Of a stretch of 5,462 nt of DNA, positions 2,175 to 5,462 are shown one piece after another; position 1 is the first letter of the stretch; each line of letters opens with the position of its first letter. The notes beneath the pieces were generated by a model that did not search any database, was not told the origin of the DNA, and worked only from the letters and a program-made list of their open reading frames with translations. The translations under genes and the position numbers were made by a program. This DNA comes from a virus. The stretch covers positions 1-5,462 of the IMG/VR virus record IMGVR_UViG_3300045988_021932; one strand, given 5' to 3'.

Positions 2175-2360
2175 TTATTGCTCTACCCAATTTTCCGGGT
2201 CGAGTGCTTCTGTTGTTCCCAGCATCTTTTTTTCGATGCGGTAAATTTTATCTTTGTCGTAATCGTAGCTGTATCTGTACTTTGTTGTTTCATAGCATCC
2301 GTATTGGTACAGTTTTTCAAGTGCTTTTACACTCAGGTGATTCATGGATTTTGCTTTCAT
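2175..2360 (-). CDS. Hypothetical protein, 61 aa, and the first gene downstream of the consensus promoter.
   Basis: The ATG at 2360..2358 is preceded by GAGAGG with an 8-nt spacer. The product is MKAKSMNHLSVKALEKLYQYGCYETTKYRYSYDYDKDKIYRIEKKMLGTTEALDPENWVEQ. The 79-aa version in the ORF track starts at a TTG that lies inside the -35 box, so I use the shorter start. I recognise no family. Confidence 0.6.
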   Translation of the reverse strand: MKAKSMNHLSVKALEKLYQYGCYETTKYRYSYDYDKDKIYRIEKKMLGTTEALDPENWVEQ

Positions 2361-2385: not shown

Positions 2386-2414
2386 ATTATACCACATGTT
2401 TCTTCTTTTGTCAA
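2386..2414 (-). promoter_or_regulatory. Sigma-70/SigA-type promoter with a perfect consensus: -35 TTGACA, 17-nt spacer, extended -10 TGgTATAAT.
   Basis: The minus strand reads ctaTTGACAaaagaagaaacatgTGgTATAATgcaaacag. The -35 box is at 2414..2409, the -10 box at 2391..2386, and the TG at 2394..2393. It is followed by the SD and ATG of the 61-aa ORF. Confidence 0.85.
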
Positions 2415-2418
2415 TAGG

Positions 2419-2436
2419 TTTTTTGAAATTTTTTTT
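2419..2436 (-). promoter_or_regulatory. UP-element-like A/T tract immediately upstream of the -35 box.
   Basis: The minus strand reads AAAAAAAATTTCAAAAAA, ending 4 nt before TTGACA. This resembles the A/T-rich UP-element pattern. Confidence 0.5.
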
Positions 2437-2441
2437 GAGAG

Positions 2442-2481
2442 GTCATGCGCTAGGCGCGGTGCGCCGTACGAAGAGCATGAC
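2442..2481. other. Nested GC-rich stem-loop with an outer stem GTCATGC/GCATGAC and an inner stem GGCGC-ggt-GCGCC.
   Basis: The inverted repeats are 2442..2448 with 2475..2481, and 2453..2457 with 2461..2465. No T-tract follows on either strand, so it is not a canonical terminator. Confidence 0.6.
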
Positions 2482-2522
2482 GTAACTTCTCGGTCCCGAT
2501 CGCCGGATTGCCTTTATTTACT

Positions 2523-2549
2523 TTTTCAACACTTTCAACACTTTCAACA
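2523..2549. repeat. Iteron cluster C: three tandem 9-bp units (T/C)TTTCAACA. On the gene strand these read TGTTGAAAG.
   Basis: TTTTCAACA is at 2523..2531, and CTTTCAACA is at 2532..2540 and 2541..2549. The period is exactly 9 bp. Confidence 0.9.
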
Positions 2550-2551
2550 GG

Positions 2552-2560
2552 TTTTCCACA
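2552..2560 (+). promoter_or_regulatory. DnaA-box-like 9-mer TTTTCCACA, fitting the relaxed consensus TT(A/T)TNCACA.
   Basis: Read directly from the sequence. It sits in a 10-nt direct repeat TCCACAAAAT shared with the perfect box at 2616..2624. Confidence 0.5.
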
Positions 2561-2566
2561 AAATGT

Positions 2567-2586
2567 TGCACAAAGGTTTTTGTGCA
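2567..2586. other. Hairpin TGCACAAA-ggtt-TTTGTGCA (8-bp stem) whose arms each overlap a DnaA-box-like 9-mer.
   Basis: It is a perfect inverted repeat. TGTTGCACA (plus strand, 2564..2572) and ATATGCACA (minus strand, 2581..2589) each differ from TT(A/T)TNCACA at one position. Confidence 0.6.
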
Positions 2587-2596
2587 TATTGCTACA

Positions 2597-2613
2597 CTTT
2601 CAACAATTCAACA
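2597..2613. repeat. Iteron cluster B: two copies of TTCAACA with an 8-bp period.
   Basis: CTTTCAACA is at 2597..2605, and TTCAACA is at 2607..2613. Confidence 0.85.
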
Positions 2614-2615
2614 AG

Positions 2616-2624
2616 TTATCCACA
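2616..2624 (+). promoter_or_regulatory. Perfect consensus DnaA box TTATCCACA.
   Basis: It is an exact 9/9 match to the canonical bacterial DnaA box, located between iteron clusters in the non-coding region. Confidence 0.6.
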
Positions 2625-2683
2625 AAATTATCAACATTAAGATTAACCAAAAAATATCGTTCCAAGGATAAAAATTCATAGTA

Positions 2684-2698
2684 TTCAACATTTCAACA
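2684..2698. repeat. Iteron cluster A: two copies of TTCAACA with an 8-bp period.
   Basis: TTCAACA is at 2684..2690 and 2692..2698. A degenerate copy, aTCAACA, is at 2630..2636. Confidence 0.85.
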
Positions 2699-2702
2699 CC
2701 TT

Positions 2703-2718
2703 CTACTACTACTACTAC
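2703..2718. repeat. Trinucleotide microsatellite (CTA)5, which reads (TAG)5 on the gene strand.
   Basis: The sequence ctactactactactac is read directly from the window. Confidence 0.9.
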
Positions 2719-2752
2719 AACAAGTTATATATAATAGATTATGTTTGCAAAT

Positions 2753-2792
2753 ACACGTGCGTGCGTGCGCGTTTCGCGCGTGCGTGCGCGTG
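2753..2792. repeat. GC-rich alternating purine/pyrimidine element containing a 13-mer direct repeat GCGTGCGTGCGCG (2759..2771 and 2778..2790, 19-bp period).
   Basis: There are 20 nt (2753..2772) and 18 nt (2775..2792) of strict R-Y alternation, separated by tt. The centre forms GCGCG-ttt-CGCGC. Confidence 0.85.
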
Positions 2793-2831
2793 AGCGTAAT
2801 TTAGCTTATGATTTTGCTTCGTACCTCGGTA

Positions 2832-2937: not shown

Positions 2938-2974
2938 GTGGGCCTAATCCTTATCTTGATAGGATTAGGCCCAC
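2938..2974. other. Perfect 14-bp stem-loop GTGGGCCTAATCCT-(9 nt)-AGGATTAGGCCCAC, located 9 nt downstream of the Rep stop codon.
   Basis: The inverted repeat is 2938..2951 with 2961..2974, and the loop is tatcttgat. No U-tract follows on the gene strand. Confidence 0.8.
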
Positions 2975-4910: not shown

Positions 4911-5462
4911 TTAGTGATGGTCGATGAGTCCCGGAATACTGTAGACCGGCATACACCGCGTTGTTTTGTTCATAAAGTAAAAGTCTGCGATAAAGTCCGG
5001 CTGAGACTGTACTGCAAGAGTCCGCTTCATCTCGGCTTCGCCTTGTTCCATCCAAGTGGTGCTCAGAGTAGGCAGTGCGTTGTAGTCCTGTGCATAGTGC
5101 CATGCATCGAGACTCTGTTGTGCGTTGCTTCGGAAAAGACCGGTAACCTTGCTCGGCTTATACCGATAGTCGGCCCATGCTTCCTGGTAGCCGAATGCCT
5201 CGTTGTCCTTTGCGTTGCCCTGTGCATAGATTTCTTTGTTAAGAATAGCCTGTTCGCCGATGTTTGCCAGTACCGGCCAGTAGTAGTCATATCGTCCGGT
5301 GCGGCTCCACATGCGTTCGATGCCCTGCTGATAGGTCTGGTCGGTTCGCACCACTGCGAGTCCCATGATAAAGCCGTGTTCTGTAAAGGACTTGGTAAAC
5401 ATAGGTTTGTTCATGGTGGTCACACTCAGCGCCGCCGTGTTGCCCAGCGGACTTGTGTTGTC
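4911..5462 (-). CDS. VP1: Major capsid protein VP1, C-terminal part. It is the same gene as 1..1163, and its last 77 nt duplicate 1..77.
   Basis: The ORF-track protein reads ...RYDYYWPVLANIGEQAI...TTRCMPVYSIPGLIDHH with a stop at 4911..4913. This C-terminus is typical of gokushovirus VP1, and the frame is open up to the right window edge. Confidence 0.93.
   Translation of the reverse strand, partial: DNTSPLGNTAALSVTTMNKPMFTKSFTEHGFIMGLAVVRTDQTYQQGIERMWSRTGRYDYYWPVLANIGEQAILNKEIYAQGNAKDNEAFGYQEAWADYRYKPSKVTGLFRSNAQQSLDAWHYAQDYNALPTLSTTWMEQGEAEMKRTLAVQSQPDFIADFYFMNKTTRCMPVYSIPGLIDHH
5386..5462. repeat. Terminal direct repeat, copy 2 (identical to 1..77).
   Basis: Same evidence as copy 1. Position 5386 corresponds to position 1. 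Confidence 0.95.

Follow-up and report, generated by a model that had tools for sequence, protein, structure and literature searches.

A candidate mimic of a bacterial chromosomal origin in the non-coding region of a gokushovirus genome

The IMG/VR virus record IMGVR_UViG_3300045988_021932 holds the complete circular genome of a gokushovirus, and the whole stretch of 5,462 nucleotides analysed from it is referred to here as the window. Its single large non-coding region (2415-2983, 569 nt) extends from the VP4 stop codon to a promoter on the - strand and contains a cluster of DnaA boxes. Positions 2523-2752 of this region probably constitute a ~230-bp mimic of a host chromosomal origin, in which a box array, a tandem box pair, a spacer, DnaA-trios and an A+T stretch would together form a site where DnaA opens the duplex replicative form (RF) for loading of the helicase. 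The anatomy of this module, its conservation among related phages and its match to the origins of Ruminococcus/Oscillospiraceae are direct observations. Judged from these, the box cluster most likely ties phage replication to the DnaA of the host.

Eleven boxes of the form (T/A)T(C/G)(A/C)ACA are found within 2523-2698, all on the + strand and three of them head-to-tail. The array 9-mer commonly takes the form TTTTCAACA or CTTTCAACA, its host-specific form can be written TTTTC(A/C)ACA, and most units are two to three positions away from the Escherichia coli-type box TTATCCACA. The original prediction on this DNA had described a DnaA-box cluster that included a 'perfect' TTATCCACA at 2616-2624 and a second box, TTTTCCACA at 2552-2560, fitting the relaxed consensus TTWTNCACA, both embedded in the 10-nt direct repeat TCCACAAAAT. 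Each of these elements is present as described, and the direct repeat turns out to be part of a 22-nt repeat (2543-2564 and 2607-2628, 91% identical). The signal becomes very strong when the array unit is what is counted, and by array density and orientation in 75 genomes the cluster of putative DnaA-binding sites in this gokushovirus intergenic region is real and selected. The weight placed on the 'perfect' E. coli-type box was nevertheless misplaced, as only ~20-30% of the 75 genomes share its A (2618) and its C (2621), both of them minority states. Among 15 aligned genomes, the site at 2616-2624 reads TTATCCACA in eight and TTTTCAACA in seven, and CCACA and CAACA interchange at further box positions. 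Strict boxes are only weakly above chance in the window: TTWTNCACA occurs twice against 0.42 expected (11 of 200 shuffles reach two), while TTATCCACA with up to one mismatch is found four times against 0.95 expected (3 of 200 shuffles reach four). The reading of the segment as a box cluster stood as far as the boxes went; it had overlooked the true repeat unit, TTTTCAACA, as well as the block of DnaA-trios written (CTA)5, the A+T-rich element and the likeness to host origins.

Related genomes were assembled as three sets: a DNA-pattern scan of IMG/VR, which found the module in 83 microvirus-sized genomes (75 of them non-redundant), a set defined by VP4 protein similarity and a BLAST-found set. 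The pattern set was chosen on the CTA block, a bias from which the VP4-found and BLAST-found sets are free. The CTA pattern also hit large viral contigs, which carried no box arrays and were discarded as chance coding matches. Array and CTA block were both present in all 29 VP4-found loci with enough flanking sequence, two of them with TTA or CCA variants. Conservation across the 75 non-redundant genomes is highest in the columns of the box cores and of the CTA block. Array-unit boxes occur at 30 per kb on the + strand of the module, compared with 0.08 per kb elsewhere in the genome, a ~360-fold enrichment. Their orientation within the module is equally skewed, with 590 boxes forward and 11 reverse.

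The non-coding module is ~82-88% identical even where the coding regions are without a megablast match, and it is either far more constrained than the genes or exchanged by recombination. Such a pattern is seen when window positions 2407-2793 are compared with KT264788, KT264789, MG945657, KT264790 and PV067914, in which the module is 82-87% identical and no coding megablast match is found. A search of the plasmid database in distant mode, with the module as query, returned no match. Box clusters of this kind are absent from Chp2, phiMH2K and SpV4. A scan of viral contigs for three canonical TTATCCACA boxes brought up one further microvirus, a distant G+C-rich contig (L343) whose intergenic segment 2458-2488 has three perfect copies of TTATCCACA spaced by 11 bp. 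No trios accompany them, and they are located ~10 nt past a promoter-like TTGACC...TATTAA. Given the boxes of L343 and the lack of clusters in Chp2, phiMH2K and SpV4, the use of DnaA sites by microviruses is apparently neither universal nor unique to this clade.

Beyond the array, the module has the parts of a bacterial basal unwinding system (BUS). The BUS of Bacillus subtilis comprises DnaA-box 6/7, DnaA-trios and an A+T-rich region, with a DnaD element on the opposite strand (PMC8287927, PMC6669920, PMC10201434). As defined in the literature, a BUS contains a DnaA box that departs from the species motif at no more than two positions and often has a tandem partner. Box and trios are separated by up to 16 bp, 13 being the commonest value (about 10-13 bp from the better or upstream box of a pair), and at least three trios with a central adenine and the consensus 3'-GAT-5' lie on the strand opposite 5'-TTATCCACA-3' (PMC8287927). 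In Firmicutes, repeats of 5'-TnnT-3' form the recognition element of DnaD (PMC10201434). The trio-proximal boxes of the window, ATTTCAACA and TATTCAACA, each have one mismatch to the host-type TTTTCAACA and are 4 and 12 bp from the first trio, respectively. The distance from the upstream box to the first trio is 13 bp in 57 of the 75 genomes and 12-14 bp in 67, and the proximal spacer measures 4-5 bp in 67. Five consensus trios follow in the window and three to six in all 75 genomes, the + strand of the CTA block being a repeated 5'-TnnT-3', that is, the DnaD recognition element. Positions 2718-2752 are 80% A+T; over the 30 nt beyond the CTA block relatives average 67%, a value lowered by the G+C-rich hairpin close behind. 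With the host motif taken as the reference, every sequence feature by which a BUS is defined is found in this predicted element. It is no chromosomal oriC, since it is located in a phage, between VP4 and the gene promoter on a 5.4-kb circle, and not beside dnaA/dnaN.

A scan of bacterial genomes found the triple repeat in non-coding DNA of Ruminococcus, Oscillospiraceae and Clostridia assemblies. There it is positioned between a gene for DnaA (ATPase and helix-turn-helix domains) and dnaN (three beta-clamp domains), as assigned with Pfam. The dnaA-dnaN intergenic region is the classical position of the origin in Firmicutes. These regions contain 23-37 boxes in the hosts; another 3-7 are located upstream of dnaA, and coding DNA is almost free of boxes. 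The 9-mer spectra are closely alike, with TTTTCAACA accounting for 43% of host and 31% of phage units, CTTTCAACA for 32% and 26%, and TTTTCCACA for 11% in both; at box position 6 the A:C ratio is 84:16 in hosts and 85:15 in phages. In six host origins the dnaN-adjacent end reads GTTTTC(A/C)ACAGTTTCAACACCCCCTACTACTACTA followed by A+T-rich DNA, and the counterpart in the window is TATTCAACATTTCAACACCTTCTACTACTACTACTAC followed by 35 nt of 80% A+T. The CTA block, too, is present in host origins. The host counterpart of the phage trio-proximal boxes, GTTTTC(A/C)ACAGTTTCAACA, adjoins dnaN, as does GTTTTCAACAGTTTCAACACCCCCTACTACTACTACTA in Ruminococcus/Oscillospiraceae origins. Two other identities had been considered for the 9-mers, a Spo0A box (TGTTGAA versus TGTCGAA) and a mimic of a promoter -35 element (TTGAAA, - strand), and both were dropped because the same 9-mers occupy DnaA-box positions beside trios in host origins.

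The host DnaA itself differs in its recognition helix, which reads GGRDHSTIVY compared with GGRDHTTV(I/L)H in the solved DnaAs of B. subtilis, Aquifex and E. coli. A role is ascribed to His439 on the basis of the structure of E. coli DnaA domain IV bound to DNA. This helix change fits a shifted box preference of the host DnaA. The Thr that is replaced aligns with Thr435 of E. coli DnaA, which has been described as base-contacting (PMC13451751). Origins built mainly of TTTTCAACA/CTTTCAACA boxes rather than TTATCCACA are seen in one host locus (L156, 4464-5809) and also in L163, L193, L168 and L202. A lineage-specific DnaA box in Ruminococcus/Oscillospiraceae is suggested by these sequences. Sequence shared by phage and host takes the form of motif patches of 27-43 nt only, and an extended homology between the two was rejected on that ground. 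The idea of an integrated phage or prophage was likewise given up, as tblastn with VP4 and VP2 matched only one mis-binned phage contig among 76 genome loci.

If the module acts as its parts suggest, ATP-DnaA of the host would bind the boxes on the duplex RF, spread onto the trio strand and melt the A+T-rich stretch, while DnaD would bind the opposite TnnT strand. The host helicase loader, helicase and primase would then be recruited, and the host machinery would begin DNA synthesis on phage DNA. The stage served might be complementary-strand or RF-to-RF synthesis, beside the putative VP4 rolling-circle origin at 2938-2974. DnaA binding, unwinding, the recruitment of DnaD and helicase, and the replication stage are all inferred here.

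Several observations weigh against an origin mimic. It is not obvious why a phage that replicates by rolling circle should need an origin for duplex unwinding. The trio-proximal boxes have three mismatches each to the E. coli consensus TTATCCACA and qualify only with a host-specific motif, which the published rule allows and which was itself deduced from position and context. Roughly half of the genomes lack the central A in their fourth triplet, and the A+T-rich stretch is short, with a G+C-rich hairpin immediately after it. Because the pattern set was chosen on the CTA block, trio conservation in it arises partly by construction. Finally, since motif patches are all that phage and host have in common, capture of a host origin and convergence are indistinguishable.

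In a bolder form of the same proposal, which is possible and should be held tentatively, the RF would be a DnaA-fired minichromosome that replicates in theta mode from the copied host origin and is timed by host DnaA-ATP, allowing plasmid-like persistence in Oscillospiraceae. VP4 rolling-circle replication would then serve only for virion DNA, perhaps of the antisense strand that carries the DnaD-binding TnnT/CTA repeats.

Other functions for the boxes have to be set against these. The array might act as a sink or sensor for DnaA, comparable to a multicopy datA or a decoy, that blocks or re-times host initiation or gates the phage on DnaA-ATP with no origin firing. Titration of DnaA, or coupling to its status, was already an alternative in the original prediction; it is compatible with all evidence that the units are DnaA boxes, and eleven boxes per genome on a multicopy RF would suit it. 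Such a sink is nonetheless unlikely, as it needs boxes only and leaves unexplained why a box pair, a 13-bp spacer, CTA trios and an A+T block stand in BUS order and orientation, why the boxes point uniformly toward the trios and why the core is unstructured. Control of transcription is a further role that could be imagined, with DnaA on the array repressing or activating the strong promoter at 2414-2386 and linking expression to the replication state of the host. DnaA is a transcription factor at box clusters in Firmicutes, the conserved consensus promoter is ~110 bp from the first box, and the boxes of L343 follow a promoter-like sequence with no trios nearby. The array, however, points away from the promoter, the trios and the A+T-rich block are 290-340 bp distant, and structured G+C hairpins intervene between array and promoter. 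We also know of no role for trios in transcription control, and regulation of this kind seems very doubtful as the function of the module. That the 9-mers are iterons for a phage protein (for example the product of the 2175-2360 open reading frame (ORF), VP5 or VP4) or a packaging signal, with an incidental likeness to DnaA boxes, is hardly credible. Iteron origins typically have direct repeats close to a replication gene, and most units are indeed two to three positions off TTATCCACA, yet both the 9-mer spectrum and the box-trio junction recur in cellular dnaA-dnaN origins without phage genes, VP4/VP2 having been found by tblastn in no more than the mis-binned contig mentioned above. Instead of an iteron-type theta origin, the genome has the HUH-type VP4 as the only replication gene seen, and repeats that match the box spectrum of host origins.

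The function first suggested for this segment was a complementary-strand origin on packaged single-stranded DNA (ssDNA), at which DnaA would recognize a box in a hairpin stem and prime through an ABC-type primosome. The A-site of the ABC primosome is a single-strand initiation signal of plasmid R6K, and the hallmark of such a site is a complete box kept as duplex in a stem. The predicted 8-bp hairpin is indeed there, with the perfect stem TGCACAAA/TTTGTGCA at 2567-2586, and its arms are box-like as described (TGTTGCACA, 2564-2572, +; ATATGCACA, 2581-2589, -), each with one mismatch to TTWTNCACA. Within its lineage the stem is kept while the loop varies, and some lineages have one inverted box, TGTGGAAAAC, beside a forward box, so that a box-containing stem is possible. 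The stem nevertheless covers only six of the nine positions of the box-like arms and holds no complete box. The hairpin is found in ~20 of 71 related modules, and is thus missing from more than two-thirds of them; ~26 carry an unrelated hairpin, TTCGTCA...TGACGAA, at that place and several lineages none. Folded as ssDNA, the whole non-coding region is much more structured than shuffled sequences (z = -4.3 and -3.6 on the two strands), and this structure belongs to its G+C-rich flanks. Within the box-trio core (2515-2752), which is less structured than shuffles (z = +1.18), the hairpin at 2567-2586 is the only stable element. The good boxes are almost all direct repeats and all unpaired in the predicted single-strand fold, and an orientation of 590 forward to 11 reverse leaves them unable to form box duplexes in ssDNA. 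Pairing of the perfect box with 2578-2588 is possible with a single mismatch, but it cannot be general because the 2616 site is TTTTCAACA in seven of 15 aligned genomes. Long-range pairings that would make boxes duplex in ssDNA, this one and another, were rejected since their partners vary among relatives without compensating changes. With the module unstructured as ssDNA and the hairpin present in ~20 of 71 modules, a box in a hairpin stem is not supported, and priming of the ABC type appears quite improbable. An unstructured core between strongly structured flanks fits an element predicted to act on duplex DNA, as the proposed origin mimic would.

The coordinates of the module, of its flanking elements and of the genes are collected in Table 1.

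Table 1. Features of the window (positions of the whole stretch; strand as + or -, with a point where none is assigned).
Feature	Position	Strand	Remarks
Three head-to-tail 9-bp DnaA-box variants TTTTCAACA, CTTTCAACA, CTTTCAACA	2523..2549	+	Cores 80-99% conserved, 75 genomes
TTTTCCACA box	2552..2560	+	TTTTCCACA/G or TTTTCAACA at the aligned position in relatives
Lineage-specific 8-bp hairpin, stem 2567-2574 / 2579-2586, arms TGTTGCACA (+) and ATATGCACA (-)	2564..2589	.	Arms resemble weak inverted boxes
Two adjoining boxes, CTTTCAACA + AATTCAACA	2597..2613	+	>90% conserved
TTATCCACA, 'perfect' E. coli-type box	2616..2624	+	Minority variant of the array unit
TTATCAACA box	2628..2636	+	
A+T-rich variable spacer with small inverted repeat TATCGTTCCAAGGATA at 2655-2670	2637..2681	.	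Other small palindromes in relatives
Tandem trio-proximal boxes TATTCAACA (2682-2690) and ATTTCAACA (2690-2698)	2682..2698	+	Counterparts of BUS DnaA-box 6 and 7
4-bp spacer CCTT	2699..2702	.	Mostly pyrimidine-rich in relatives, often G+C-rich (e.g. ACTCC, GCCC)
(CTA)5 on +, five consensus DnaA-trios (3'-GAT-5') on -	2703..2717	-	
A+T stretch, 80%, 35 nt	2718..2752	.	Candidate DNA unwinding element
Sigma-70-type promoter, TTGACA, 17 nt, TG-extended TATAAT	2386..2414	-	12/12 consensus; conserved in relatives
G+C-rich hairpin, conserved	2442..2481	.	Module boundary on promoter side
G+C-rich alternating purine-pyrimidine hairpin	2753..2797	+	Module boundary; G.T pairs stabilise + strand only
14-bp stem-loop, loop TATCTTGAT, CTTGATA-type motif, just past VP4 stop	2938..2974	+	Candidate rolling-circle origin
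VP4	4006-2984	-	
VP2	4870-4007	-	
VP1	From 1193 across junction to 4911	-	
VP3	1651-1160	-	
VP5	1871-1629	-	
Small ORF, ~61 aa (MKAKSMNHLSV...)	2175-2360	-	Shine-Dalgarno-like sequence; first gene after promoter

The module is bounded by elements of other kinds. On one side, the promoter, from which the nearest box is ~110 bp upstream, appears to be the only one for all genes; its type differs from that of Bacteroidetes and would suit a Firmicute host. The G+C-rich hairpins on the promoter side (window 2442-2510) occur in alternative, unrelated versions, as seen at the aligned position in L005, L006 and L008. One version contains TAGCGT, which we take to resemble the CS-6 loop motif of ssoA origins in rolling-circle plasmids. 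On the other side, a conserved palindrome at 2753-2797, immediately behind the A+T-rich block, forms an 18-bp hairpin on the + strand with three to five G.T pairs, which is much weaker on the - strand. The + strand form is the more stable one in 63 of the 75 genomes (mean -18.9 versus -14.7 kcal/mol). Possible roles for this hairpin are those of a single-strand origin signal, of a segment prone to Z-DNA and of a stop to unwinding. At 2858-2883 there is another hairpin, whose - strand form, with 11 pairs including G.T, is stronger than its + strand form and which has a T-run on the + side; it would suit a terminator of VP4 transcription. In relatives, the candidate rolling-circle stem-loop shows compensatory changes in its stem and a conserved loop with CTTGAT. 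Replicons of the phiX174 and pC194 types are nicked at such a motif. A homologous stem-loop of Chp2, with loop TCTACTTGAT, is on the coding strand; here the motif is antisense to the genes, and its cleavage by VP4 is putative.

The strand of this motif bears on which strand is packaged. On the coding strand, four-fold sites are rich in T in Chp2 and SpV4 and rich in A here and in phiMH2K, and singleton substitutions among close relatives, counted on the + strand, comprise 22 G>T against 3 C>A. Together with the motif strand and the G.T hairpin, these biases point to the + strand as the single-stranded one and suggest that the packaged strand may be antisense to the genes, making the virion DNA negative-sense. 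A virion strand of that polarity would carry the CTA/TnnT side of the origin and not the DnaA-trio side.

The record represents a circular genome of ~5385 nt with terminal overlap, because the two ends of the window, 1-77 and 5386-5462, are identical (~77 nt). Its megablast matches, at 80-87% identity, include gut gokushoviruses from the faeces of humans, pigs, dogs and monkeys. Every gene is encoded on the - strand, and the identities of VP4 and VP2 to relatives are mosaic. Three ORFs that overlap the array (2344-2640 and 2508-2681 on the + strand, 2450-2587 on the - strand) were judged spurious, as they read through the repeats (FQH/FQQ runs); the region they cover differs among relatives by large insertions and deletions. 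A search of the whole window against Rfam with E up to 1 gave no match.

Gokushoviruses are among the most abundant ssDNA phages of animal guts. The literature searched held nothing relevant on DnaA, DnaA boxes, oriC or origin-like elements in gokushoviruses or Microviridae. A copied host origin would offer a concrete DnaA-dependent mechanism for the start of complementary-strand or RF synthesis and a third route beside those of phiX174 (PriA) and G4 (primase). It would indicate that a module of box, trio and unwinding element can move onto a virus. The match also predicts Ruminococcus/Oscillospiraceae as hosts of a large uncultured clade, a prediction based on origin mimicry alone. It further points to a divergent DnaA box, TTTTCAACA, with matching recognition-helix changes in a major family of gut bacteria. 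The module could also aid in building replicating vectors for Ruminococcus/Oscillospiraceae bacteria that are hard to manipulate.

Among known systems, the BUS of bacterial chromosomes is alike in its tandem boxes, its short and often G+C-rich spacer, its three or more 3'-GAT-5' trios and its A+T-rich DNA, all in the same order, orientation and spacing. The distance of 12-13 bp from upstream box to trios and the TnnT complement are shared as well, and the phage element is near-identical to the BUS of Ruminococcus/Oscillospiraceae. Unlike its bacterial counterparts, the element, known here from sequence, belongs to a 5.4-kb rolling-circle ssDNA phage and is not beside dnaA/dnaN, uses the TTTTCAACA box variant and has a short A+T-rich block capped by a G+C-rich hairpin. 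With the A-site of the ABC primosome it would share the priming of a small replicon by DnaA and, in this genome, a hairpin with box-like arms. It differs in that the stem holds no complete box, the hairpin is lineage-specific, and what is conserved is an unstructured array of direct repeats with trios.

Complementary-strand origins include the PriA assembly site of phiX174, the primase-recognised hairpins of G4 and the single-strand origins (sso) of rolling-circle plasmids. Like these, the module is non-coding, is positioned a few hundred nucleotides 5' of a putative nick site and is flanked by stable hairpins; their signals are folded single-strand structures, whereas the core described here is unfolded, appears to consist of duplex-type protein sites and has no Rfam match. 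oriC minichromosomes and reservoirs of the datA type are comparable as extrachromosomal or secondary box clusters that compete for DnaA, although the phage cluster is found on a microvirus of lytic type with a separate, putative HUH-Rep rolling-circle origin. DnaA boxes also occur in plasmid and phage origins such as those of pSC101, F, P1 oriR and RK2, and phage T5 reportedly has a DnaA-box cluster at its injection-stop region. All of these are mobile elements with binding sites for the DnaA of their hosts. They combine few boxes with an initiator and iterons of their own, or use the boxes outside replication, whereas the phage described here has no gene for a theta-type initiator and instead appears to copy the whole chromosomal unwinding module, trios included.

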